Shown: piece by piece, positions 5,694-29,359 of the stretch
Numbering within the stretch: position 1 is the stretch's first letter
Layout of the letters: each line of letters opens with the position of its first letter
Origin: Minisyncoccota bacterium
Lineage (GTDB): Bacteria > Patescibacteriota > Minisyncoccia > UBA6257 > 2-01-FULL-56-20
Direction: 5' to 3'
NCBI GenBank assembly: GCA_035509435.1
Contig: DATJLR010000003.1
Span: 11,853 to 75,852 of the forward strand
DNA length: 64,000 bases
Position numbers and translations under genes: made by a program
Notes under the pieces: generated by a model
The model's input: only the letters and a program-made list of their open reading frames with translations
The model's database searches: none
What the model was told of the DNA's origin: nothing

Positions 5694-6250
5694 TTGCCAC
5701 GACGGCCCTCCTCCCGCACTGCTTCCGGATAATTATCGCCCATCACATGACGGCGCGCGCGCATAAGGAGTTCCTTCTGCACGAGCCGCGCCTTCGTCTT
5801 CCCTACCGCCGGCAGAATGATCTTATTATGCGCCGCATCGCGCTCCGACCCGTTCATAAAGATGACCACCTGGCTCACGCCGGCGATTCGATCAAGCGGT
5901 CCGCGCTGGATGCTCACGTTCTGGATCTGGTGATAAAGCGCCGCGAGCTCGGTGCGCATGACATATCCGTAGGTCATCACAAAGGCCTCGTCGGTAAAGG
6001 TATACGTATAAAAACGATACTCCATCCAGGTCCACAAAAGCACCACCAAAAGATAGAGCACGCTAAAGAGCGCGAGGAGATCCACTGCATACTGAACGAA
6101 CGGTAGGTAATCGGGTGGCACCCACCGCTCGCTGTACCAGGCGGCGATGGTCAGGACAAAGAAAAAAATCGCGAGCTTTATCCGCTTCGACAGAAACAGG
6201 AGGAATGCGCGCTTGCCAAGCGAATGTTTTTGGTGGTTCTCAATCCCCAT
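5687..6250 (-). CDS. bacterial PH-domain (YdbS/YdbT-like, DUF304) membrane protein
   Basis: 187 aa; two TM helices followed by 'YTFTDEAFVMTYGYVMRTELAALYHQIQNVSIQRGPLDRIAGVSQVVIF', typical of membrane-flanked bPH_2 domains. Confidence 0.6.
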   Translation of the reverse strand: MGIENHQKHSLGKRAFLLFLSKRIKLAIFFFVLTIAAWYSERWVPPDYLPFVQYAVDLLALFSVLYLLVVLLWTWMEYRFYTYTFTDEAFVMTYGYVMRTELAALYHQIQNVSIQRGPLDRIAGVSQVVIFMNGSERDAAHNKIILPAVGKTKARLVQKELLMRARRHVMGDNYPEAVREEGRRGNY

Positions 6251-8019: not shown

Positions 8020-9014
8020 GCCGGTTTCACCAGATTGATCGGCGCGCCGTTCACGAACGCCACAATATTATCGATCGTCGTATCAAGGATGCGCAGGAAC
8101 GCCTCGCGCGTGTTGAACGCGTTGTGCGGCGTCACGATGACGTTCGGCAGCTGGATAAGGTCCGCGTCGAGCGACATATCCCCCGCCTTCATCGCTGCCT
8201 CTTCTTCCAGCACGTCGAGCCCGGCGCCCGCGAGCGTGCCATCCTTCAACGCCTCCACCACCGCCTTCGTCTCCACGATCGCGCCGCGCGCGGTGTTCAC
8301 GAGGATCGCGCCGCGCTTGATGAGCCGCGCATTGTCCATGTTGATGAGGTGATGCGTTGACGGAAGATACGGCGCGTGGATCGTAATGACGTCGCTCTTC
8401 TTGAGCAGATCCTCGAGCGAGAGGTATGGGAAGCCCATCTCCTTCGCGAACGCATCATCGTGATACACATCGTACGCGACGATGTTCATCCCGAACCCTT
8501 TCGCCATGCGGATCGCGTGCTTGCCGATGCGGCCGGTGCCGACGACGCCGATCGTTTTCCCCGCAAGGTCAAATCCGGTCAGGCCGTCCGTCGTGAACTT
8601 TCCTTCCACGCGCACGCGCGCGTTGGCCTTGATGATCTTGCGCGAGAGCGCGAGGATCAGCGCGAACGCGAATTCGGCGACGGTGTTCTCGCCGTACGCG
8701 GGTACGGACGACACCGGGATCCCGCGCGCGGCGGCCGCGGCGAGGTCGATATGATCAAAGCCCGTGGAAAGCGTCGCGATGAACTTGAGCTCGGGCAGCG
8801 CCGCGATCGTCGCCGCGTCCACCGGCGAGTCCATGAACACGCCCGCGATGTCAAAGCCGCCCGCATCGCCCTGGGGGATCCTGTCCTTGCTCAACGCCGC
8901 ATCCACAAAATCCACCGCCACATCCGCCGCCTTCAGTTTCGCGCTTCCCTCCAGGTACGACTTCGCCTCGTCGCCCCACCGCCCGCAGTTAAAGAAGGTC
9001 GCTTTGTGTGCCAT
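8016..9014 (-). CDS. D-isomer-specific 2-hydroxyacid dehydrogenase (D-lactate/glycerate/phosphoglycerate dehydrogenase family)
   Basis: 332 aa; 'GKTIGVVGTGRIGKHAIRMAKGFGMNIVAYD' Rossmann motif and catalytic 'R...E...H' arrangement; 4-nt overlap (ATGA) with eno. Confidence 0.85.
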   Translation of the reverse strand: MAHKATFFNCGRWGDEAKSYLEGSAKLKAADVAVDFVDAALSKDRIPQGDAGGFDIAGVFMDSPVDAATIAALPELKFIATLSTGFDHIDLAAAAARGIPVSSVPAYGENTVAEFAFALILALSRKIIKANARVRVEGKFTTDGLTGFDLAGKTIGVVGTGRIGKHAIRMAKGFGMNIVAYDVYHDDAFAKEMGFPYLSLEDLLKKSDVITIHAPYLPSTHHLINMDNARLIKRGAILVNTARGAIVETKAVVEALKDGTLAGAGLDVLEEEAAMKAGDMSLDADLIQLPNVIVTPHNAFNTREAFLRILDTTIDNIVAFVNGAPINLVKPA

Positions 9015-9096
9015 AGGGGTATTATAGCACTACCAGATGCTATTTTCTCGTGGAAAGCCGCGGCCTCATCCAAAGGTTTTTATTAAGATGCTGAGC

Positions 9097-9618
9097 TTAG
9101 ATGGGTCCGTAAGATATACCCGCAAACTGCTTATCAATATTACCCTGCGAACGTCTCCCCGGCATTACATCTGGCTTAAAGATTGCTTTCATCCAATATT
9201 TTTTGCCCCAAATATCTTGATAGGTTATATAAAGTTCTCCATTATTAAAAAGAGGGTTATTCCCTTCTGAGAAAGGGATCGTCGCCGAGCTTTCTAAAAA
9301 TTGAAAGCTGTCTGAGTATTTTTTAGGCAATATATCAAAGCTAAGATTCAAAATTCTGCCTATTGGTTTGATTTCCACTCTAATATTCTTAGCTAGCCCA
9401 TTTCCAGCATTTTCAAGACCAAAGTTTAATACTTGGGGATTTGAAACATCAGTGATAATAGGAACTAATATAGGGATCTGGCCTTCTCTATTTTGTCTTA
9501 GCGCCTTGAATGCATAATAGGCCGATAGACCGGCGACAATGACGGATAAAAGTGGCAGTAAGATTCCAATCCAGTTTAGAAATATAGGGCTCTGATGAAT
9601 TAAAAGATGATGGTGCAT
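9097..9618 (-). CDS. hypothetical membrane-anchored protein (low-GC islet)
   Basis: 173-aa ORF, AT-rich, N-terminal TM helix. Confidence 0.45.
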   Translation of the reverse strand: MHHHLLIHQSPIFLNWIGILLPLLSVIVAGLSAYYAFKALRQNREGQIPILVPIITDVSNPQVLNFGLENAGNGLAKNIRVEIKPIGRILNLSFDILPKKYSDSFQFLESSATIPFSEGNNPLFNNGELYITYQDIWGKKYWMKAIFKPDVMPGRRSQGNIDKQFAGISYGPI

Positions 9619-9634
9619 TGATGCGTTACTTTTA

Positions 9635-10093
9635 CTAATTACTCCACTCCGAACAAGATTGAGCCGCCTGTTGTGCTATAACCCTGTATTGAGGAGAAGC
9701 AGCACCATTAACATTGATGTAGGCGTTAGCGTCTATAAGCCATACCACGCCATAATTTTCTATGAGGTAATCGAAATCACAATTACATTTGCCCCATGTT
9801 CCCCCAGAAGATGTACAACCATTAACAAAAGAATTTCGTTGACTCTCGGCGGCAGGTGAAAAAGTCATAGGCGTGTAATTGTGGGGATAATCATAAGATG
9901 GTTGAACGGTTGCGTTTTGAACCTGGGGCTGAATTTGAACTGCCGATGACGTCTGGGTGAGTTGTTGAATTGAGTTGTTCGCGGAAGTATTTGTTAATTG
10001 CTCTTGATTGTTTAAATTTTGCCCCAATAAATAGGCTCCTATGGTTAGGGCTACAACCAAGACACCTACAACAAACCATTTCCCTCCACTCAT
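9635..10093 (-). CDS. hypothetical secreted/membrane-anchored protein (low-GC islet)
   Basis: 152 aa; N-terminal TM/signal; Q/N/T-rich linker; Cys-containing C-domain 'GCTSSGGTWGKCNCDFDYL'. Confidence 0.45.
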   Translation of the reverse strand: MSGGKWFVVGVLVVALTIGAYLLGQNLNNQEQLTNTSANNSIQQLTQTSSAVQIQPQVQNATVQPSYDYPHNYTPMTFSPAAESQRNSFVNGCTSSGGTWGKCNCDFDYLIENYGVVWLIDANAYINVNGAASPQYRVIAQQAAQSCSEWSN

Positions 10094-10185
10094 ATTTTTG
10101 TACTAAAATTATCAAACAAAAGTATCGTTTTAGCAATAGACGACCGACTCACGCTAGAACGAACTAGAAACAATCATGACTATTC

Positions 10186-18752: not shown

Positions 18753-20303
18753 TTAAAAATCCGCCACGGGCATCTCGTCGATGTCGGTATAGTCAATGCG
18801 TAGGTCGTCGAATACTGTGCCTGCGGTGTTATGGCCGCCGAGAGCGCCGGGTGCGACGCCGCCCGCGCCGCCCGATTCCTCACCTGCGCGACGGATGAAG
18901 TCGCCCTGCGCGGCGCGGAGCTCGTCTTCGCCAAAGCTCGCCAGATACTGCTCGGTGCGCGCGGAATCGGCGCGGAAGCCGGCGTCGAGCGCCCGAACGC
19001 GCGGCGACACTTGCAGGGCAAGCGCGTTGAAACCGATGAGCGAAATGTTGCGCAGCTCGCGCACGCGGGAGAGCGCCACGTAACCCATCCCGCGGTCGAA
19101 CGCGCGGCCAAGATCGATCACGGCGGCATCGAGCGTCATCCCCTGGCTTTTGTGGATCGTGATCGCCCACGCGAGCTTGAGCGGCAGCTGCGAGACGCTC
19201 GCCATGCGGTCGCGGCTCTTGCCGTCCTTGCCGCGGCCGCCGTCGCTGTCTCCCACGCGCCACTGGAAGCGGCCAAGCGTGATGCGCTTCTTGTCGAAAG
19301 TCATAATGACGGGATTCGCCTCGATGGCGCTCGCTGCCGCACCGCTCGCGCTGGCAGAATCGCCGTCGCCGCCCATCTCAAAGTCCACGACTTCGCCGAG
19401 CGTGCCGTTCACATATCCAACGCCCATGTTGTTTTTGGTGAACATCACGCGCGCGCCGATCTTGAGCGTCAGCTTGTCCGGCACGTCGTTGTCCTTCTTG
19501 AGCTTGTCCACCAGCACCGCGGGGCCGTTCGTGTACGCTTCGTAGATCACGTCCGGCGTTGCAAGCTTACGCAGTTCCGCGGCGTTGATCTCGTCCACGT
19601 TCTCGCGATGCGTGTAGAGCCGCGCGATGCCGATCGGCGCGGCGACCGTGGCGCCAATGCGGGCGTTCAGCTTTGCCGTGATGTCCGGCGTCACTTCGCC
19701 CGCGCGGATGGCGTCCAGGATCTCGAGCAGGTCATCGCCACTGCTGCTGCCCCTACCCGCAGCGCTTCCGCCCACCTGGCGATGCTGCTCCGTCAAATAG
19801 CACACGCGCATCTGCGCATTCTTCCACGCGGCGGAATCGATCACAAACTTCTCGGACTCGCCGTTCACTGGTGGAATCTGGAAGAAGTCACCGCAGCACA
19901 CGATCTGCAATCCGCCGAATGGCTCGCTGGAATTCCGCGCGGTGCGGCAGATCAGGTCCACGCGATCGAACTGCTCGGGATGCAGCATGGAGATCTCGTC
20001 TATAATAAGCACCCGTGCGCGGCGGATGCGGTCGGTCAGGTACTCGTTCGCGCGCACGCGGTCGCGCTCCTGCTTCTCGTCGGGGATCGGCCCGCGCGTC
20101 AGCCCCGCCCACGAATGGAGCGTGCGCCCGGAAAGGTGCGATGCGGCGATGCCGGTGTAGGCCGTCACGGCCACCTCCACCTCGTGGTCCTCAAGGAACC
20201 GGATGTACTCGTTCAGCAGGTACGTCTTCCCCGCCCCGGGCGCGCCGGTCAGGAACACGTTCTCGCCCGTCTTAAGGATGGCCAAAGCGGTGGATTGGAG
20301 CAT
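18753..20303 (-). CDS. Pif1/RecD-family (AAA_30/UvrD_C_2) ATP-dependent DNA helicase
   Basis: 516 aa; Walker A 'GAPGAGKTYLL', Walker B 'IIDEISML', motif V/VI 'WAITIHKSQGMTLD'. Confidence 0.8.
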   Translation of the reverse strand: MLQSTALAILKTGENVFLTGAPGAGKTYLLNEYIRFLEDHEVEVAVTAYTGIAASHLSGRTLHSWAGLTRGPIPDEKQERDRVRANEYLTDRIRRARVLIIDEISMLHPEQFDRVDLICRTARNSSEPFGGLQIVCCGDFFQIPPVNGESEKFVIDSAAWKNAQMRVCYLTEQHRQVGGSAAGRGSSSGDDLLEILDAIRAGEVTPDITAKLNARIGATVAAPIGIARLYTHRENVDEINAAELRKLATPDVIYEAYTNGPAVLVDKLKKDNDVPDKLTLKIGARVMFTKNNMGVGYVNGTLGEVVDFEMGGDGDSASASGAAASAIEANPVIMTFDKKRITLGRFQWRVGDSDGGRGKDGKSRDRMASVSQLPLKLAWAITIHKSQGMTLDAAVIDLGRAFDRGMGYVALSRVRELRNISLIGFNALALQVSPRVRALDAGFRADSARTEQYLASFGEDELRAAQGDFIRRAGEESGGAGGVAPGALGGHNTAGTVFDDLRIDYTDIDEMPVADF

Positions 20304-20306
20304 GTT

Positions 20307-20672
20307 CTAAAATTTTTCAATGTCCTTTGCTAGTTCTCGAAAGATGAAGACCCCTAATACAAGAACCGCTACGACATACAAGATTCCAACCGCCCAATGC
20401 GAAGAGAATTCAACTTCAAACAAAAATTGATATATACCAATGATTACTTGCACCAGCGCGAAGGCGATTAAAACCAACGAATATTTTCTGGTCGATTTAT
20501 CGAGTTCGTGAGCCGTTTTTCGATTCCTCAAAGCGGCCTTAATTTGAAGGATCGTTAATTTATGCATTTTCTGTTCCTCGACCATACCACTACTTGGAGG
20601 CCCTATGGTCTCAATTTCCCCTAGAAGATCTTGATCTTCAGATAGATATAGCTCCATGTTCTTATTATCCAT
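20307..20672 (-). CDS. small membrane protein, hypothetical (AT-rich, 3 nt upstream of helicase start)
   Basis: 121 aa, about 40% GC, two C-terminal TM helices. Confidence 0.45.
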   Translation of the reverse strand: MDNKNMELYLSEDQDLLGEIETIGPPSSGMVEEQKMHKLTILQIKAALRNRKTAHELDKSTRKYSLVLIAFALVQVIIGIYQFLFEVEFSSHWAVGILYVVAVLVLGVFIFRELAKDIEKF

Positions 20673-20752
20673 GCAAAAAGTTTACGCCACATCATAAAAT
20701 ACACAAGATTGACGAATTCGAAAGAATATATAAGATTGAGGGACGTACTAAA

Positions 20753-21709
20753 ATGGAACTCTTCTCGAAAAGATACTCGGCAAAAGGGCCTCGCAATGAC
20801 GTTATTCTTTCCGATACACTTAGAAAGCGTCTGGAACAGGAGTTAAAGTTCATAACTTCAAGTAAAGATTATATTGAAGCCTTTCTTTTGGTTGATAATG
20901 AAAAAGAGAATAAGATTTATTTGCATTCTCTTACCCTACGAGATTTAAGTTCTCGGGAGTTGGGTTATGATTTAACGTCCTTGGTTTACTGTAAAACTAT
21001 GGATTTCAATGCGAACCCCGATGATAATCAACTTCTAGACCTTATAGAACTATTAATCATTTTTTGTAAAGAAATAAACCGTAAAGAATTAATTGAGAGG
21101 TTACAAAACATCTTCAAGGAAGAGGGAGATCAATTTATAATTCACAATTTCATAATTTTTAAGAAGGATGAAACTGGGCTGAAATCTCTCGTGCCCTTAA
21201 TTAAAGATAAGAACCTCCAAGTCAAATTAGAGGAATACTTTACTGAAGCATCGAGAGGTAGTAAACCAAATTATGAGATGCTAGCCCGTATTGCTGCGGA
21301 TATTGTACAGATACTCTTTAGTGCTCCAAAGCAAAAAGAAACAAAAAAATATTCTGAACAATTATGTAGCGATATTGCATATAAATGGACGGATAAAAAG
21401 AATGCCCAAGCGTTGGCAATTCTCCTTAGTGAAACCGTTAAAAATGCTAAGGAACTAAGTAATCAGATTAGTAATATTCGACATACAGACAGAAGCACTA
21501 TACCAGTTAGAACGCCTAGCCTATATAGATTAATTGCCTTAAAAAATTCTTCAATTGCTGAAGTGGTTATACTTTCCTTGCCAGAAAATTATATTTTAGA
21601 CCAAAATCCGGAAGAGATTAAAAATCACTATCTCGGTAAATACAACCTCAAAGCTGATAATGGCTGGTTGGTTGAAGATGAAATAAAGCCGGAAGATATA
21701 CCTTTCTAA
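20753..21709 (+). CDS. hypothetical protein (AT-rich island)
   Basis: About 318 aa from the ATG at 20753, preceded by GAGGGA 9 nt upstream. The ORF track's 20594 start overlaps the opposite-strand gene. No recognisable motif. Confidence 0.45.
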   Translation: MELFSKRYSAKGPRNDVILSDTLRKRLEQELKFITSSKDYIEAFLLVDNEKENKIYLHSLTLRDLSSRELGYDLTSLVYCKTMDFNANPDDNQLLDLIELLIIFCKEINRKELIERLQNIFKEEGDQFIIHNFIIFKKDETGLKSLVPLIKDKNLQVKLEEYFTEASRGSKPNYEMLARIAADIVQILFSAPKQKETKKYSEQLCSDIAYKWTDKKNAQALAILLSETVKNAKELSNQISNIRHTDRSTIPVRTPSLYRLIALKNSSIAEVVILSLPENYILDQNPEEIKNHYLGKYNLKADNGWLVEDEIKPEDIPF

Positions 21710-21739
21710 AGCAAGACCAGATAGGCAACGACTCAATCT

Positions 21740-22927
21740 CTAAAAATTCTTAACAATAAGATGCTGCACGGCCCTATCATTCCTACCTTTCATATTGTAA
21801 GTGTATTTCTTATCGAACGAAGAGATGTTTATATTCTGCTTGCCTTTGTATAAGCCGTAGATGAACGACGTCCTTTTTATCACCAAAATAAATTTGGCCT
21901 TAGTGGTATATAAATAACGCGCAAGCCGAAATTGGTCATCACGATCAAAGCTTTTCTTTTCGTAATCACTGAAATCGGTATCGTATGGAGGGTCGAGGAA
22001 AATAAAATCTTTTGAAGAAAGCTTCAGTTTATTGAGAAATGTTTCAAAATCCTCGTTGTAAATTACCGCTCCTGCCAAGAGATTATGGGCCTCCAAAGAA
22101 AAGAGCCGGTCGACTTTCTTTCTAAAATTTTTAGTGTTGTACCCTATCCCTCCATATGGGATATTAAATTCTCCGTTGGCGTTAAATCGGAACATGGATC
22201 CATAGCAAAACTCTCGGATGAAATAATAGTTTGCGATGGCTTTTGCGCGGCTGATATGGTTCATTCCCCTTTTTTCATTCATAACATCCCTAAAATGCAT
22301 ATAAAATCCACTGCGAAATGCAGTCTCAATGTTCTTATGAAGATCCTCAATTGAGATCCTGCCGCTACTGAACTCAAGCTTTTTGACACGTGTGATCTTA
22401 TCAATGAGATTGTCAATGATGCGCTTTTCAAGATTATTCCTGTCTATACAAAAGTCCGCCCTGAACAGCCCATTGAATGCCTGAATTTGTCCGTGTATGT
22501 AATCTTCCGTAAGGCGACGCAGATCGTTTTTGCTAATAGAATCGGCAGCATAACGGGCGTACAAAGAGATGAACTGCCTCTGGAAAAGAAGGATGTAATT
22601 CGGAATTTTCTCCCAATTGAAGACATACTCATAGATTTCCTTAGAAAATTCTTTTGTATTATATTTCCCACCTACGAAGCGGTAAAAATCCATCAGCTCT
22701 ACGGCAATATCGTTGATGGCGGCTCTTTCTGGTTGTAACTCAAAAAATATCGCACCACCACCAAAGAACGGCTCAATATAGCGATCAAACGCAGGAATGT
22801 GATGCTTAATAAAAGAGAATTCCCGTTTTTTTCCGCCAGGCCACTTGATCAATGCCTGTGTATTAGGTGTGGATATCTCCCGATTGGAAGGTCGCAAGAG
22901 GTTCAAATCAATGTGCTGTTTTTGCAT
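21740..22927 (-). CDS. Dam-like (D12 class) N6-adenine DNA methyltransferase
   Basis: 395 aa; 'IKWPGGKK', 'EPFFGGGAIFFEL' (SAM binding), catalytic 'FLDPPYD'. Confidence 0.85.
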   Translation of the reverse strand: MQKQHIDLNLLRPSNREISTPNTQALIKWPGGKKREFSFIKHHIPAFDRYIEPFFGGGAIFFELQPERAAINDIAVELMDFYRFVGGKYNTKEFSKEIYEYVFNWEKIPNYILLFQRQFISLYARYAADSISKNDLRRLTEDYIHGQIQAFNGLFRADFCIDRNNLEKRIIDNLIDKITRVKKLEFSSGRISIEDLHKNIETAFRSGFYMHFRDVMNEKRGMNHISRAKAIANYYFIREFCYGSMFRFNANGEFNIPYGGIGYNTKNFRKKVDRLFSLEAHNLLAGAVIYNEDFETFLNKLKLSSKDFIFLDPPYDTDFSDYEKKSFDRDDQFRLARYLYTTKAKFILVIKRTSFIYGLYKGKQNINISSFDKKYTYNMKGRNDRAVQHLIVKNF

Positions 22928-23630
22928 TTTCTATAATTTTCTTTAGTTGTGAAATTTTTAAAATGTTATTGCGCTGTCGATGAACCATCCGATGGCAGTT
23001 TGAACACAGAGGAACGACTTTCTTCAACGCTTCATCCGCCGCCATCTTTTCTCCGGACGCTTCATGCTGATGAATAGGATGCGTGTGATGAATCTCGATA
23101 TAATCGCGGCCGCGTTCGCCGTAGAATTTCAAGAAATCGAACTCGCACGCTATGCAAGGAATTTTTCCGCCCTTCTTAAAGTGCGCCCTGGCAAGCTGGA
23201 TCAGTTTTCGCGACCGCTCTCTGAACGCAACATTTTTTGTCGAGAGAAATCCTTCTTCAACGATGATGTCTTTGTAGTCATCTTTGAATTCTTGCTCTCT
23301 TATCTCTTCACTGAAGCCCTGCTCCTGAAGCGCTTCAACAACTTCTTCATAACCAGCATTCAAATATCTTCTACCCTCGTCCGTAATGAAGAAAAGTTTG
23401 TCCTTATATATCGCAAGATTCTTCTTCTCTAAGGTATCGTGCGATTTTAGGTTGCGCACTTTTTGGCTGAACTTTGTATCGGTGCGGCCGCTGAGTATTT
23501 CAGCATCTTCCCCTTCGGGCTTCAGTGTGTCAGTTAATTCCTTGATAAGATACTCGGTCGGAACGCCTTCCGGATGGCGCTCGATGATCTTAAGGGCGGG
23601 AATTACGAGGTCCGATTCGGCGTAAATCAT
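22908..23630 (-). CDS. HNH-family endonuclease (probable restriction endonuclease partner of the Dam-like MTase)
   Basis: 240 aa; 'CIACEFDF...IEIHHTHPIH...PLCSNCHRMVH' HNH/zinc motif; 20-nt overlap with the MTase gene; AT-rich. Confidence 0.75.
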   Translation of the reverse strand: MIYAESDLVIPALKIIERHPEGVPTEYLIKELTDTLKPEGEDAEILSGRTDTKFSQKVRNLKSHDTLEKKNLAIYKDKLFFITDEGRRYLNAGYEEVVEALQEQGFSEEIREQEFKDDYKDIIVEEGFLSTKNVAFRERSRKLIQLARAHFKKGGKIPCIACEFDFLKFYGERGRDYIEIHHTHPIHQHEASGEKMAADEALKKVVPLCSNCHRMVHRQRNNILKISQLKKIIENAKTAH

Positions 23631-23735
23631 ACTCTAAGTTTAGCATATAGCCCCGAGAGGTGAATCTACTTGATATCCCCATGTCGATGAGGATATCCAC
23701 ATAGTATCTTATGCACTAGAACTGTCAAAAAATTT

Positions 23736-24190
23736 TTAATCCTTTTTTAACGAATCCCCCCATCCCCACTCGCTGTACCCCACGCCTTCGCGGTAGCAAC
23801 GGATCGCCTCGCGGATATAGGGAATGGTGTTTGCGGGCAAGGCGTCGAGCGGGAACCAGCGCAGGTCGTCGCACTTGCCGGGCTCCATGTTGGCCGCTCG
23901 CCGCTCCACGCCGCGGGCTCAAAGAAGAAGTCCAGCCGCTCGTCGTCGGCGCGGCGGTGCATCACAACCTTGAGCCGCAGGTCCGCAGCCCCGATCGTGA
24001 CGCCCGACTCCTCCATCGCCTCCCGCGCGGTGGCCGCCGTGAGCGCCTCGCCGCCATCGGCGTGACCGGCCACCAGGCTGTAATTGCCATCCTCGTAGCC
24101 GGTGTTTGCGCGGCGGAGCATCAGGATCTTTCCGTCCTTCACGAAAAGCACGTAGACGGAGGCGATAAGCTTGAAGCGATCGGCGGTCAT
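23736..24190 (-). pseudogene. Nudix hydrolase with apparent 1-nt frameshift near 23895-23905
   Basis: From ATG 24188-24190 the frame reads a Nudix fold ('MTADRF...LVAGHADGGEALTAATAREAMEESGV') up to '...[11 protein letters not shown]'. The conserved C-terminus '[42 protein letters not shown]' continues in the adjacent frame (stop at 23736-23738). Confidence 0.6.
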
Positions 24191-24210
24191 GAAAACATTG
24201 TAGCACCTTA

Positions 24211-24246
24211 TAAAAAAGAAAAGGCGCATCCCCGGAGGAATGCGCC
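24211..24246 (-). terminator. intrinsic terminator of gene 24269..25192 (copy 1 of GGCGCA...TGCGCC hairpin repeat)
   Basis: Minus-strand GGCGCATTCC-TCCGG-GGATGCGCC followed by TTTTCTTTTTTAT. Confidence 0.6.
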
Positions 24247-24268
24247 ATGTTTTTCACTTTGTGCCAAG

Positions 24269-25192
24269 CTAGATGACCATGTCGGCTTCGATCCGTGCGC
24301 GCACCGCCTGCACGGCGAGAGGAGCAACGTTCGCTCCTTTGAATATCGCCTTCTGGTCTTTTTCCTTCTTCGGCCAGTAGCGGATGACGTCTTCGATCAT
24401 GGCGAGGCCCGTGGAAAGGCTTGCATGGGTGGATTCGATCCCGGCTCCGAGCGCAAGACAATCATTGTCCGAGGTCATGAACCTGACATTCACCTCGTCA
24501 CCCCGCTTCTTGGGACGGGCAAAGGTGAATATCGTGCTTCCCGCAAAGATCCCCACCCGAAGCACCGTCGCCCCGAATTTCCCTTCCATTTCCCGATCGG
24601 GCTCTGCCCGGATGAGAGTGAAAAGTCCCCGCTGATAGACGAGACGAAGGAATTTGTCGAACTGCAGGTGCAGCGCGTGACGCTGGGCATTGAAGTAGAC
24701 GTCCATCTTTGCGTCCAGATGATCGTCTTGGACAATGGCCCTGATCACATTCTTGAGCAGATGAACTCCGACAATCTGATAGACGATATCTCCCGCTCCA
24801 AGCTCCACGAGATTGATCATTTGTTCGTCCCGCTCTTTCTCGTAAAGTTTCCGGAACCATACAACTGCGGGGTCTTCGCTTGTCCGCACCACTTCGTACG
24901 CGTCCAGGATAAGCTGCGGCAGGTGGAGGGTGAGGTCGTAAAATTCGTTCTTTTCGTCGGCGAGTATGGTAAGACCCTGGAGCCATCTGCTAAAGAACAG
25001 GGCAAATAATGCCTCACCTTTCTCGCTTGCGTTGGTGGAAGCGGCATGCATCCCTAACCGGAATATTACATCTGCTTTTTTCACTTTTGCTCCTTTATCC
25101 TTCATAAGAGGATTTACTGCTGACGAAATTGTACATTTAAATTCCAATTTCGTCAAAAGACAACGAGCCCATTCCTGGCGCTGGTCCTTCAT
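24269..25192 (-). CDS. hypothetical protein
   Basis: 307-aa ORF; GAGG 4 nt upstream of ATG; no recognisable domain; bracketed by near-identical 36-nt repeat copies. Confidence 0.5.
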   Translation of the reverse strand: MKDQRQEWARCLLTKLEFKCTISSAVNPLMKDKGAKVKKADVIFRLGMHAASTNASEKGEALFALFFSRWLQGLTILADEKNEFYDLTLHLPQLILDAYEVVRTSEDPAVVWFRKLYEKERDEQMINLVELGAGDIVYQIVGVHLLKNVIRAIVQDDHLDAKMDVYFNAQRHALHLQFDKFLRLVYQRGLFTLIRAEPDREMEGKFGATVLRVGIFAGSTIFTFARPKKRGDEVNVRFMTSDNDCLALGAGIESTHASLSTGLAMIEDVIRYWPKKEKDQKAIFKGANVAPLAVQAVRARIEADMVI

Positions 25193-25198
25193 CGCCTC

Positions 25199-25234
25199 AT
25201 AAAAAGAAAAGGCGCACTCCCGGAGGAATGCGCC
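25199..25234 (-). repeat. copy 2 of the 36-nt hairpin+T-run repeat, immediately 5' of gene 24269..25192
   Basis: ATAAAAAGAAAAGGCGCACTCCCGGAGGAATGCGCC, 2 mismatches versus copy 1 at 24211-24246; terminator-like hairpin ends 16 nt before the start codon. Confidence 0.6.
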
Positions 25235-25353
25235 CTTTGGTCAGGCCACTTCCGTCTCGATGTAGTGTGCCCACGAAAGCCAGATCTCCATCAGGACGGA
25301 TTGGTCCACGGCGTGGGCCGACGTTGATGGTATTTCTGTCATGCCCATTTCCC

Positions 25354-25382
25354 TTGACCACACCCTTCCGATGGCCTATCCT
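25354..25382 (+). promoter_or_regulatory. candidate sigma70 promoter for 25411..25950
   Basis: TTGACC (25354-25359), 17-nt spacer, TATCCT (25377-25382); RBS AAAGGAGAGGG; ATG 25411. Confidence 0.4.
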
Positions 25383-25410
25383 ATCCGGTGGAAAGGAGAG
25401 GGCACTCTCT

Positions 25411-25950
25411 ATGACATTCACAATTCAAAACCCTGAGGCTGATCCGGTGATCGCTAAACAGGCCACCGACGCGTTCGATCTGCTGACCCCGCATTGGAGG
25501 GAACTGCTTCCTCCGATCACCGCCATCATCGTAAATGAACGGTTCGACCGCATCGCGGATCTCCGGCCCATGATCGACGCCCGGTTCTCCAACTGGGGAG
25601 ACCATGAGTGGGAGCAGGTCTACGCTTTTTCACCCAAATACAGTTTGAATGAGGCCGAAGTGTGGCTCCGTCCGTACTATTCGTTCGATTCTTTTGCGCG
25701 AGAGGTGTATTGCCTCTTGGCACAGATCGTATGGACCACAACCCCGGACATTCGCGCCGAGGTCGCAGCGGCCACCCACAAATCATTTCACACGGCCAAT
25801 GCGGCTCTGTTGTATTTCAGCGTTTCCTTTGGACGCTTTTTTCTCAACCGAAAGCTTCTTCGTGAACGGAACCTGGCGGCATGGTTCCTCATGGAGCGCC
25901 TCGATGACCTGGTGGAAACCAAGCAGCTTCAGCGACTTCAGGTGACGTGA
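25411..25950 (+). CDS. hypothetical protein
   Basis: 179 aa from the ATG at 25411 with strong SD. The ORF track's 25228 start lacks an RBS. No recognisable domain. Confidence 0.5.
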   Translation: MTFTIQNPEADPVIAKQATDAFDLLTPHWRELLPPITAIIVNERFDRIADLRPMIDARFSNWGDHEWEQVYAFSPKYSLNEAEVWLRPYYSFDSFAREVYCLLAQIVWTTTPDIRAEVAAATHKSFHTANAALLYFSVSFGRFFLNRKLLRERNLAAWFLMERLDDLVETKQLQRLQVT

Positions 25951-26030
25951 TGGCGAACGATCGCCGTCTTCCGCAAAACTCGCGAGGCCCCGGCGCAATG
26001 TCGGGGCCTCTTTCTTTATTACGATGAATT

Positions 26031-26237
26031 TTATGCTGAAAGCTTCTTTACGATCTCGTCCCATGAATGCACGCGCTCGATCCCCGGCGGAAGCTCGCCC
26101 TGGTTCCATGGCTGATCAAAAAGGAACACCTTGATGCCGGCCTCGGCGCAGACCGTCGCGTTGGTCATGTGGTCCTCGATCATGATCGTGGCCCCAGAGT
26201 CCGCCACCACCTCGTCAAAATCAATGCCGATGCGCAT
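26031..26237 (-). pseudogene. HAD-superfamily 5'(3')-deoxyribonucleotidase-like remnant (internal deletion of core/cap)
   Basis: 68 aa: HAD motif I 'MRIGIDFDEVVADSG' joined directly to the C-terminal motif III/IV region 'IMIEDHMTNATVCAEAGIKVFLFDQPWNQ...RVHSWDEIVKKL'. Intact family members are about 180-200 aa. Confidence 0.5.
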
Positions 26238-26314
26238 GGGTTAATGATACCGTAAATAAGAAAGGGCGCCACCGTTTTAGTGACGCCCCTTGATCCACTG
26301 TAACCCTTCCCGGC

Positions 26315-26581
26315 CTATTTCATCGGCCATATTGCGGCCACGAAGATCCCCTGGCTTTCCTCGCGGCTGACGACGCGAGCGAAGGTCATTTCGTGGCCGC
26401 CCTCCAGACAGACCAAAAGCTTGCAATGCTTGCCCATGGCGAGCAACTGAAGAAAGCAGTCCATGCCCTCGACAAGCGCTCGCGGCCCTGTGAAGTCGCC
26501 GAATTTTTGGACCACTTTTTCGGCGCTCACACCATTCGCGTCACACCCTTCAACGCTCGTCCTGATTACCTTTTCGATCAT
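26315..26581 (-). CDS. hypothetical small protein
   Basis: 88-aa ORF between the HAD remnant and HIT gene; no recognisable motif. Confidence 0.35.
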   Translation of the reverse strand: MIEKVIRTSVEGCDANGVSAEKVVQKFGDFTGPRALVEGMDCFLQLLAMGKHCKLLVCLEGGHEMTFARVVSREESQGIFVAAIWPMK

Positions 26582-26666
26582 GTAAAGCCTCCTCTTCTTT
26601 TCGCAGCTGCAAATCTGCCAACAATATACATCCGGGCAGGAATGGAGTCAATCGCAATCCGCGCGT

Positions 26667-27110
26667 TTACATCGCTGCGGCGATCTCCTTTGCCACCGCA
26701 TCGAGCTCCGCTTCCGGCGTCGTCTCGCGCGAGCCGGGCCGGTACAGGAACTTGCGCGGCTCGTATTCGGTGATGCCCTCGTCCCCTGCCGTGCGCGGCA
26801 CGATGTGCAGATGGAAGTGCGGGATGGATTGCCCGGCCACGGCGCCTTCGTTCCAGGCATGATTGAAGCCCGTGGCGCCGAACGCTTTCCAGAGCGCGGC
26901 CTTCACCTCCGCCGCGAGCGCAAAGATCGCGCGGCGCTCGTCGTCCTTCAGTTCATCGAACGTCGCCACGTGCCGCGCCGGGATCACAAGCGTGTGCCCG
27001 GGCGTGATCGGGATGTTCGTCAGGAACGCGATCGCAAGCTCGTTGCGCTTGACCGTGCGCGCCGGAATGTCCGGCAATGTGCAATAGATGCAAGAGGAAG
27101 ATGCGGCCAT
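26667..27110 (-). CDS. HIT-family (histidine triad) nucleotide hydrolase
   Basis: 147 aa; 'HFHLHIVPR' histidine triad; N-terminal 'CIYC' zinc-like motif. Confidence 0.85.
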   Translation of the reverse strand: MAASSSCIYCTLPDIPARTVKRNELAIAFLTNIPITPGHTLVIPARHVATFDELKDDERRAIFALAAEVKAALWKAFGATGFNHAWNEGAVAGQSIPHFHLHIVPRTAGDEGITEYEPRKFLYRPGSRETTPEAELDAVAKEIAAAM

Positions 27111-27111
27111 A

Positions 27112-27675
27112 TTATTTGTGGCCGAAGATCTTCTCTTTCAGCTCCTTTTTGAATTCAGGGTCGAATTGCGTGCGCAATAAATATAATGCCAGCTCTTTAT
27201 CGCGAAAATCCGGCCGTTGGGAAAGTTCCAGAAATTCATCGAACGAAACGGGCTTTATAGTGATCCTCTCACCCGCATCAAGATGCGGGTCCTGGATATG
27301 CTTACAGTCACGTGCGATGAAAGTATAAACGGTCCATTCAAGAGAATTGAATGGCTTCCGCTCCCTGAACATGGTCCAATCATCCGAAACGTATCCGGTC
27401 TCTTCCAAAAGCTCACGTTTGGCTCCCGTCGACGCTTCCTCTCCTTCATTACATCGGCCGCCCGGAATAGAAACAAACGGCGCCCGATGTGGTTGCTCCT
27501 GTTCCTCGATCAAAATTTTATCTCCCACGACCGCGATCACATCCGCGCTGTCCGGCCGGCTGATCTTCTCGTATATCTCGGTCGTCCCATCGAACACTTT
27601 CTGTTCCCATTGCCACACCTCGAACACCTGCCCTTTGAACATCCGTTTTGCGTTCGGTGGAATTCCTTTTTTCAT
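27112..27675 (-). CDS. Nudix hydrolase (ADP-ribose pyrophosphatase-like)
   Basis: 187 aa; Nudix box 'GGRCNEGEEASTGAKRELLEETGY'; separated from the HIT gene by 1 nt. Confidence 0.85.
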   Translation of the reverse strand: MKKGIPPNAKRMFKGQVFEVWQWEQKVFDGTTEIYEKISRPDSADVIAVVGDKILIEEQEQPHRAPFVSIPGGRCNEGEEASTGAKRELLEETGYVSDDWTMFRERKPFNSLEWTVYTFIARDCKHIQDPHLDAGERITIKPVSFDEFLELSQRPDFRDKELALYLLRTQFDPEFKKELKEKIFGHK

Positions 27676-27930
27676 ATCATTTATTTTTGAGTGCTAAATA
27701 TTCCTGAACGCCCTTCAGCCATCCTCCTTTAAAATAATTTTCTTGTTTGAAATCTTTCGGGGCCACCCACAAGAGTTCCGATGGCGCTCGTTCATACCAC
27801 CTATTAAAGCATCCTTGGCAGTCTTTCGTCTATTATGTGCCAATAACGGCCGTTTTTCCACTTTTAAAATAGTTTTAATCGCTTATTTGTTATAGTCCCG
27901 TCAGTTGTTTAAAAACTGAAAGGGGTTTTT

Positions 27931-28674
27931 GTGAAGCTATCAAAAATGCAATTCGCAACCGTGGGTCTCGAGCTCCTGACCCTCACCATCTTCGCGTCCA
28001 CAGCAATCGGACAGGCACGGCAAAATGTTGTGCATCAGGCATTCTATGCCTTAAGCACATCCGCCAATGGAACCTCCACCCAAACCATCAACGGTAATTA
28101 TGTCGGCAACTGGAACTGGCTCAACAGCAATTACAGCTCCTACAATGTCGTCAAAAATTGGTACAACTATTACCAAAACGGCAGCTGGACATGCTATCCG
28201 TCAGATTTTGCCGCAGCTGGCGACGTGTGCCCAAATCTCACCGGCCATCCCGTCGCGAGTTTCTATTCCAATCCTGGCGGCTATGGCTATAGCCCGATTA
28301 TCCCTGAGGTTGCCTATGGCCGCGGCGGTCAATGCACTTATTTTGCGAACCTTGTCGTCTATCGCTCGGGAGTCTACACCGGAAGTTTCCCGAGCCTATC
28401 CAATATGTGGGCTGCTGGAAACTCCAATATGCAACAGGTCCAGATCGGGGACGTGATCCTGAGGTACAACGTCGCTGGCTATGTCAATCATATCGCCATT
28501 GTGGTACAGGTCTATACGAATGGCGGTTCCGTGACAAGCGTTGACGTCGTCGATTCGGATTACTTCCCTGATTATCTTTCGGGCGTAAGTTACCCGGAAG
28601 TGATCACACGGCACAATTTCCCCATCGCCAACCTGCAGGGATATTTCAGGATATGGAAGGTGCCCGGCTACTAA
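27931..28674 (+). CDS. secreted CHAP-domain peptidoglycan amidase/peptidase
   Basis: 247 aa; GTG start 5 nt after GAAAGGGG; signal/TM; catalytic Cys in 'GGQCTYFANLVVY' and His in 'VNHIAIVV', typical CHAP spacing. Confidence 0.65.
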   Translation: MKLSKMQFATVGLELLTLTIFASTAIGQARQNVVHQAFYALSTSANGTSTQTINGNYVGNWNWLNSNYSSYNVVKNWYNYYQNGSWTCYPSDFAAAGDVCPNLTGHPVASFYSNPGGYGYSPIIPEVAYGRGGQCTYFANLVVYRSGVYTGSFPSLSNMWAAGNSNMQQVQIGDVILRYNVAGYVNHIAIVVQVYTNGGSVTSVDVVDSDYFPDYLSGVSYPEVITRHNFPIANLQGYFRIWKVPGY

Positions 28675-28751
28675 AAACCAAGTTCTGGAGGGGTAAAACA
28701 ACCCCTCCATTTTTTAATCTTTTTTTAATGTTAATATGCTATGCTCATCTT

Positions 28752-29348
28752 ATGAAAAAATTATTAAACAGAAAATATATCGCTTTTGCTTGCATGGTCA
28801 CGGTCACAATCGTTGCCATCGGATGCATTTTCCTGTGGCGATATCACTTTAGCCCCGTTCAATCCCGCACCTCAACGATGGCTCTCCCCGAAATTCAAAC
28901 ACCTTCAGGCTGGTATTTGTGGGGAAAAGATCATCTTCCTGCGGGCACTAACGGCCCCGTCAATAACATTACCTTCGGAAATAAGCCAATGGCATCAGCG
29001 GACGATGCGGCGACCATGATAGTTGTTAACGCGCAAGATCCCTTTGGAAGAACCGATGAGCAATGGATTGCTGATGTCCTCTCCTCTTCCCTGGAAGAGC
29101 TGGGAAGTCCTACATCCACGCGGCTGTGGAGTGCGATCAATGGGAGGCTCGTACTAAGGGCGGTAACGCAAACACCTGCGGGTGGCTATGATCTTAATTA
29201 CTATATCCTTAATGATGGGGTGGAATATATATTCCAACTTGATCCGACACATGCCGATGATAATATATCATCCAGCTCCGACGCACAGACGCTGCACACC
29301 ATGGTTCAGAATTTTGCCGAGAGCCTGCCGCCCATCGTTTCTCAATAA
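28752..29348 (+). CDS. membrane-anchored hypothetical protein downstream of CHAP gene
   Basis: About 198 aa from the ATG at 28752 (MKKLLNRK...), N-terminal TM helix. Confidence 0.45.
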   Translation: MKKLLNRKYIAFACMVTVTIVAIGCIFLWRYHFSPVQSRTSTMALPEIQTPSGWYLWGKDHLPAGTNGPVNNITFGNKPMASADDAATMIVVNAQDPFGRTDEQWIADVLSSSLEELGSPTSTRLWSAINGRLVLRAVTQTPAGGYDLNYYILNDGVEYIFQLDPTHADDNISSSSDAQTLHTMVQNFAESLPPIVSQ

Positions 29349-29359
29349 ATAATAGGGTT

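Follow-up and report, generated by a model that had tools for sequence, protein, structure and literature searches.

Composition and gene content of the islet

The locus considered here is a small AT-rich islet in a metagenome-assembled genome (MAG) of Candidatus Paceibacterota (assembly GCA_035509435.1). It lies in a stretch of 64,000 nucleotides (nt) of contig DATJLR010000003.1 (positions 11,853 to 75,852), which is called the window below and among whose proteins are those with NCBI accessions HUC01913-HUC01917. The islet spans positions 20304-23746, between the host pif1 and NUDIX genes, and comprises four genes with their spacers: a gene for a small protein with two transmembrane (TM) helices, a gene for an AbiJ-like protein with a HEPN-like domain, and the overlapping genes of a predicted restriction-modification (R-M) pair, namely a Dam-family methyltransferase and an HNH nuclease. 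Together they probably form a composite, horizontally acquired defence islet, made of three self-contained modules and located upstream of host pif1. Since each of the modules is also found elsewhere on its own, the four genes do not constitute a conserved unit, and the islet is best read as three independently mobile modules rather than as one four-gene system.

Base composition sets the islet apart from its surroundings. Over positions 20304-23640 the GC content is 39.1%, against 56.9% in the rest of the window, and the GC profile has its lowest 3.3-kb stretch there. The adjacent host genes have 63-65% GC, and the GC content at third codon positions (GC3) is 0.31-0.49 in the four islet genes, against 0.75-0.84 in the flanking RNR, TrmB, Pif1, and NUDIX genes. 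The junctions coincide with gene boundaries, and all open reading frames (ORFs) are intact. On this contrast in GC and GC3 at gene boundaries, the islet is foreign and horizontally acquired. Its dinucleotide signature deviates from that of host windows by only about 2 standard deviations, so base composition is the carrier of the foreign signal. An earlier reading of the window, made from the letters alone and referred to below as the original prediction, had announced this drop in GC and the four ORFs, all of which are present as it gave them. Two details change. The core of the islet (20304-23640) stands, but its end has to be moved outwards from 23640, as the 116-bp spacer at 23631-23746 has 36% GC and extends the AT-rich tract to 23746; and the 318-aa AbiJ-like gene is encoded on the strand opposite to the other three.

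The flanks of the islet carry no convincing direct or inverted repeats. No tRNA gene lies near it, the sole tRNA gene of the window being located at 1572-1643, and no further Rfam family was matched in the window. The original prediction had recommended a search for orthologous loci lacking the islet, but no such empty site was found among relatives of the helicase and of the NUDIX protein. Searched with the helicase, the GTDB species genomes gave relatives of 38-45% identity only, with no synteny and no islet genes, and when the helicase and the NUDIX protein were looked up by exact sequence, only the same organism came back. A NUDIX/HIT synteny beside an AbiJ-like gene in locus L004 (the contigs used for comparison are given as L numbers) was set aside as a coincidence, the HIT proteins being just 26% identical.

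A foreign composition without an integrase or flanking repeats could also be what is left of a decaying mobile element. In that case the R-M pair and the HEPN-like gene would persist as selfish addiction or toxin modules bringing no real anti-phage benefit. Such an origin would be in keeping with the location of the nearest R-M cassettes beside a tRNA-Gln gene, and both R-M systems and HEPN toxins are known as selfish elements (Anantharaman et al. 2013, PMC3710099). Yet the four ORFs are intact, the catalytic residues are invariant, and the TM gene is under purifying selection. A search of IMG/VR viral contigs, moreover, gave no relative for the 318-aa protein, and relatives of the HNH nuclease were full length in just 2 of 40 hits. 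As selfishness and defence are not mutually exclusive, part of this reading is compatible with a defence islet; a remnant without any benefit is unlikely.

A predicted Type II restriction-modification pair

The gene at 22908-23630 (minus strand) encodes a putative HNH restriction endonuclease of 240 aa, with an N-terminal winged helix (wH), a C-terminal HNH domain of the beta-beta-alpha-Me type, and a CxxC...CxxC zinc site. The residues H181-H182...N211...H217 and the zinc cysteines 159, 162, 209, and 212 are invariant in 31 HNH sequences, and no characterised enzyme matched the nuclease by sequence. The gene overlaps by 20 nt (22908-22927) that of a 395-aa N6-adenine methyltransferase of the Dam family (D12 class; 21740-22927, minus strand), which carries the motifs KWPGGK, FFGGGA, and DPPY and an insert of about 100 aa in its target-recognition region. 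The methyltransferase matches Pfam MethyltransfD12 (PF02086; 1.9e-34), TIGR00571 (154 bits, cut-off 115), and PADLOC MTase_II (3.7e-53), and among PDB structures it is related to DpnM, E. coli Dam, and T4 Dam. The original prediction was right on each of these points: the D12 class with its WPGGK, FFGGGA, and DPPY motifs, and the 20-nt overlap, which is the same in the closest relatives.

Those closest relatives are the cassettes L090, L092, and L093, in which the nuclease is 69-71% identical and the methyltransferase 71-73% identical to the proteins of the islet. All three keep the order nuclease-then-methyltransferase in otherwise unrelated surroundings; L090 and L092 share flanks and were counted as one independent context. 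An extended -10-like element, TGC TAAACT (23637-23645, minus strand), precedes the ATG of the HNH gene by 6 nt and probably serves as a leaderless promoter for the R-M operon. The pattern TGnTAAAMT-N6-ATG is kept in L090 and L092 (at about 5980-6000), and the sequence further upstream is unrelated. The promoter scan also lists TTGACA-16-TACTAT at 23728-23701. The nearest cassettes are found 65-95 bp from a tRNA-Gln(ttg) gene (L090 5835-5906, L092 5863-5936, and L093 1420-1493), before a superoxide dismutase gene. The neighbourhood of a tRNA-Gln gene is a classic integration site and hotspot.

Linkage of the two genes was surveyed in 80 metagenomic loci carrying nuclease relatives at 35-57% identity. 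A homologue of the window methyltransferase adjoins the nuclease in 55 of them (upstream and on the same strand in 48, downstream in 1, and convergent in 6). When only the 34 well-flanked loci are considered (at least 1.3 kb on either side), such a homologue is present in 23, and in 10 of the remaining 11 an adjacent ORF bears a DPPY, NPPF, or NPPY motif, which would represent a different class of amino-methyltransferase. Because this partnership outlives both changes in gene order and a swap of methyltransferase class, the two proteins can be regarded as a restriction enzyme with its protecting methylase. Their assignment as a putative Type II R-M system, which the original prediction had described as a compact module, is well supported by the conserved linkage.

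The original prediction had further proposed to deduce the target of the methyltransferase from motif depletion, and no target could be inferred in this way. In the host part of the sequence, CTAG is the only palindrome to be strongly depleted, with an observed/expected ratio (O/E) of 0.41, a generic effect; CATG is mildly low (0.88), and GATC is over-represented (O/E 1.18). For GATC, 539 occurrences were observed against 456 expected (z of about 6), and neither this motif nor CTAG is tied to the R-M pair of the islet. The insert of about 100 aa, for its part, would argue against plain GATC recognition.

A different role can be envisaged for the nuclease, as Type IV enzymes dependent on N6-methyladenine (m6A) are known among wH-HNH proteins of this size, and the haloarchaeal wH-HNH proteins SruGXI and HpaD253I proved toxic to Dam+ E. 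coli (Helbrecht et al. 2024, PMC11037411). The islet nuclease might likewise be a modification-dependent, m6A-sensing endonuclease, and the Dam-family methyltransferase an unrelated or orphan enzyme. Its architecture and size class (wH plus HNH, 224-283 aa) are those of SruGXI and HpaD253I, Mrr_N matches occur among its homologues, its top PADLOC match is a Type IV mREase model, and its top PDB match is EcoKMcrA. However, the 2024 study took a missing methyltransferase neighbour as its criterion, which held in 87% of its set, and used Dam+-dependent toxicity or cleavage near G6mATC as the experimental criterion for wH-HNH Type IV enzymes (PMC11037411). In the family of the islet nuclease, by contrast, a methyltransferase gene is adjacent in nearly all related loci and even overlaps the nuclease gene here. 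Since the family does not stand alone in this sense, a Type IV function is retained as a rival of low probability to the Type II pair. This also bears on the widespread family of 'predicted HNH restriction endonucleases' (wH plus HNH), which is methyltransferase-linked here and should not automatically be equated with the methylation-dependent wH-HNH enzymes.

The AbiJ-like protein and its genomic contexts

The only islet gene on the plus strand (20753-21709) encodes a protein of 318 aa. In the ORF list its frame begins at a TTG at 20594; because all homologues begin with MELFSKR, the start codon is fixed at 20753. A total of 36 full-length homologues were found, at 41-54% identity. The family is small, as judged from the mere 88 hits that a profile search of all 1.84 billion representatives returned, and it is known chiefly from contigs of candidate-phyla-radiation type; its two organism-named members come from Paceibacterota and Parcubacteria. 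The original prediction had described the protein as devoid of recognisable motifs, a description that no longer holds once the family is considered. AbiJ_NTD4 is matched below threshold but recurrently, at E<=0.01 in 12 of 27 members, and is the sole recurrent family; weak PDC-S32 matches are present in 4 of the 27. The predicted model has a HEPN-like C-terminal fold. The protein would thus consist of an AbiJ_NTD4-like alpha+beta domain (residues 1-165 or so) and a HEPN-like four-helix domain (about 170-280), with an invariant dyad R243-H244 in the sequence NIRHTD (N-x5-R-H-T-D). On sequence and model together, its identification as the product of an AbiJ-like, HEPN-type candidate abortive-infection (Abi) gene with a non-canonical motif is moderately supported, in line with the earlier suggestion that an orphan protein of the islet could be an abortive-infection component.

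The AbiJ-like gene is a single-gene cassette. Members of the family have 28-39% GC, below the host in every case, including the host of about 60% GC in L002. In 3 of the 7 independent contexts the gene abuts an R-M system, a different one each time: the D12/wH-HNH pair in the islet, an NgoFVII-like restriction endonuclease (REase) with a C5 methylase in L216, and an EcoRI-like methylase with GmrSD_N-HNH in L217 and L218. The fourth context (L005 729-12781) is a seeming conflict island with an OLD-like AAA_15/AAA_21-TOPRIM protein, an Ntox28 toxin, and HATPase_c, and the remaining three have no defence neighbour. These contexts match the proposed coupling of HEPN proteins with R-M systems and the model of a sensor N-terminal domain (NTD) combined with a toxic HEPN domain (Anantharaman et al. 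2013, PMC3710099). A TM partner was rejected, no small TM ORF being found upstream of the AbiJ-like genes in L005 or L216.

Some further details of these contexts can be mentioned. The homologue in L216 (3590-7407) is directly upstream of the NgoFVII-like REase and of the C5 methylase, which is fused to a LexA/S24-like domain, and that in L217 (472-3809) is directly upstream of the EcoRI-like methylase and GmrSD_N-HNH. Two contigs that otherwise differ (L002 7339-7710 and L219 2920-3246) both have an ASCH-domain gene directly downstream of their AbiJ-like gene, which may reflect coincidence or shared ancestry.

The small membrane protein and the host helicase

The TM gene (20307-20672, minus strand) encodes a protein of 121 aa with an acidic/amphipathic cytoplasmic N-terminus, a conserved LQIKAxLRNRKTAHDLD segment, and TM helices at about residues 65-85 and 93-112. 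A search of 5.8 billion clusters returned two homologues only, with 62% and 55% identity, located in L089 and L215. Since nonsynonymous variation (pN 0.25-0.30) is far below synonymous variation (pS 0.84-0.93), the ORF is genuinely coding and subject to purifying selection. The gene figures in the NCBI annotation (VMA75_03340) and was missed by the ENA gene call (L001 9552-10000, corresponding to window 20307-20672), an example of how easily small foreign genes are overlooked by gene callers. Weak SLATT and DUF2207_C matches are limited to the hydrophobic hairpin, and the PADLOC RTasSLATT match (E 0.0018) covers the same TM hairpin, at positions 22-78 of a 176-position model. The best guess is that the protein has an accessory function and acts on the membrane, for instance as an exclusion protein or a toxin.

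A promoter-like element, TTGTGT-16 nt-TAAACT (20679-20706, minus strand), ends 6 nt before the ATG of the TM gene, a leaderless geometry. The arrangement TCTTGyG-N16-TARAMT-N6-ATG is common to all three members (the window, L089 6335-6380, and L215 120-165), and their outer flanks diverge. Together with the element preceding the HNH gene, this suggests that the TM and R-M cassettes travel with promoters giving leaderless mRNAs.

Beyond the TM gene, outside the islet, lies the flanking gene of a host Pif1-family SF1B helicase (18753-20303, minus strand; PF05970, 2.8e-36), with 65% GC and a GC3 of 0.84. As the original prediction had pointed out, the TM gene ends just before the helicase gene: its stop codon occupies 20307-20309 and the helicase ATG 20301-20303, leaving a gap of 3 nt. 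This gap and the TM promoter element also support the further suggestion that the islet is the probable source of the helicase promoter, and the helicase is probably expressed through read-through or re-initiation from the TM promoter.

Should the two proteins also work together, the pair would be an anti-phage system of two genes, in which the helicase is the sensor and the effector is the membrane protein; the original prediction had described such pairings as recurrent. Co-transcription is likely given the 3-nt gap, the helicase gives weak PADLOC matches to helicase-containing candidate systems, and the TM protein has its weak SLATT-like match. But the partnership was not seen outside this locus. 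In L089 and L215 the TM homologues are followed by different sequence, without a helicase, and neither lies beside an AbiJ-like or R-M gene; the neighbours in L089 match no Pfam family. Conversely, none of the 80 kept loci with Pif1 relatives contains a TM homologue or any other islet gene. The helicase is host-like in composition whereas the TM gene is not, and its family (596 relatives across the candidate phyla radiation (CPR), Psychrobacter, Acinetobacter (Moraxellaceae), Bifidobacterium, and others) is widespread as a single gene in CPR, Moraxellaceae, and Bifidobacterium. Pif1 is a host gene, not a defence partner, and a two-gene system is very improbable.

Origin and proposed function of the islet

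In the scheme proposed here, the islet would have been inserted immediately upstream of pif1 in a GC-rich Paceibacterota chromosome. The R-M operon would give a probably leaderless transcript, with the nuclease first and then the methyltransferase; the methyltransferase would mark host sites, and the nuclease would cut unmarked incoming DNA. By analogy with AbiJ-NTD/HEPN proteins, the N-terminal domain of the AbiJ-like protein may recognise some component of the phage, and the HEPN-like domain at its C-terminus may be a toxic, probably RNA-directed effector. The protein could then provide a second, abortive layer behind restriction, a role that fits the repeated occurrence of its family beside unrelated R-M systems. 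Transcription of the TM gene most likely continues into pif1, the original upstream region of which would have been displaced. The analysis shows the composition of the islet, its domain content, the conserved linkage of nuclease and methyltransferase, and the independent mobility of the modules, and the enzymatic activities, the sensing mechanism, the use of the promoters, and any phage-resistance phenotype are predicted ones.

A number of results weigh against this composite defence islet and have to be set beside it. No close relative without the islet was found, so that the insertion rests on composition. Among palindromic 4-mers and 6-mers, none is avoided as strongly as a long-resident R-M system might lead one to expect, and the promoter scan as a whole was not enriched over shuffles. 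Most of the points concern the AbiJ-like protein. The window protein has no match in Pfam, NCBIfam, PHROG, or PADLOC, and the AbiJ_NTD4 (PF18863) matches of its family stay below the gathering score, the best reaching 29.3 bits against 34 (1.3e-6). No Pfam Abi_C or PADLOC AbiJ match was obtained for any of the 27 members, a Foldseek search of PDB with the model returned generic helical bundles only, and the canonical HEPN motif Rx4-6H is absent, no histidine being found 4-6 residues after the arginine. Finally, 4 of the 7 AbiJ-like contexts have no R-M neighbour. As for an assembly or binning chimera, to which a metagenomic origin and an abrupt jump in composition might point, it is barely credible, because the same gene order, with the same neighbours on both sides, is found in three assemblies/contigs of the same organism (459,847 bp, 100,164 bp, and 20-50 kb) and the junctions fall exactly at the boundaries of intact genes.

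A bolder version of the composite islet, rather doubtful at present, would make the 318-aa protein the representative of an undescribed family of R-M-associated HEPN-like effectors, found mainly on CPR-type contigs, with the invariant dyad of neighbouring Arg and His residues (N-x5-R-H-T-D) instead of Rx4-6H, and spread as AT-rich cassettes of one gene that settle next to unrelated R-M systems. In this version the 121-aa protein would be a second new mini-module, whose conserved leaderless promoter captured control of host pif1.

In the very small genomes of CPR bacteria, or Patescibacteria, few immune systems have been recognised. The islet provides a clean example of how a CPR genome may layer restriction with an Abi-type module through the uptake of AT-rich cassettes. 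A small HEPN-like family with a non-canonical R-H dyad that recurs beside unrelated R-M systems is, in addition, a tractable candidate for testing the coupling of HEPN proteins with R-M systems.

Other parts of the window also vary in composition. A second low-GC patch at 9037-10136 (about 40% GC in 9001-10000) encodes two small proteins of 173 aa and 152 aa with hydrophobic N-termini and no Pfam family. Beyond the islet, positions 23747-29350 are patchy in composition (44-58% GC) and may belong to a wider variable region. ORFs without a family there encode proteins of 307 aa (24269-25192), 240 aa (25228-25950), and 231 aa (28653-29348), and a secreted protein (27931-28674) gives a sub-threshold match to the CHAP domain.

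Comparison with known systems

The R-M pair resembles known Type II systems combining an HNH nuclease with a D12 methyltransferase (Dam/DpnM, TIGR00571) in its adjacent and overlapping genes, its motifs for S-adenosylmethionine binding and DPPY, its intact HNH and zinc residues, and its linkage across dozens of loci. The methyltransferase differs from Dam and DpnM by its insert of about 100 aa, and the nuclease differs from those of known Type II HNH pairs by its Mrr_N-like winged helix, the presumed DNA reader. With enzymes of the SruGXI/HpaD253I type, the nuclease shares its size (about 230-280 aa) and the two-domain layout of wH and HNH, a likeness in which homology of the wH domains is not established. 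Whereas these enzymes mostly stand alone, the family of the islet nuclease is almost always found beside a methyltransferase.

The 318-aa family shares with AbiJ-type proteins (AbiJ-NTD4 plus HEPN; Anantharaman et al. 2013, PMC3710099; lactococcal AbiJ, PMC13064643) an alpha+beta NTD with similarity to AbiJ_NTD4, a HEPN-like bundle, a single-gene organisation, and frequent adjacency to R-M systems. No mechanism is known for lactococcal AbiJ (PMC13064643). The differences lie in the sub-threshold Pfam match, the lack of Abi_C and PADLOC AbiJ matches, the replacement of Rx4-6H by N-x5-R-H-T-D, the small size of the family, and the restriction of its named members to CPR. The 121-aa protein has in common with SLATT effectors a two-TM hairpin encoded in the neighbourhood of a conflict system; it differs from them in the C-terminal position of its TM helices and in having neither the SLATT cytoplasmic domain nor an accompanying nucleotide-signalling or reverse transcriptase gene.

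The islet thus challenges no current concept. It is a typical small anti-phage islet that follows known themes of defence islands, and what is new in it are the members of the families involved and one variant motif.

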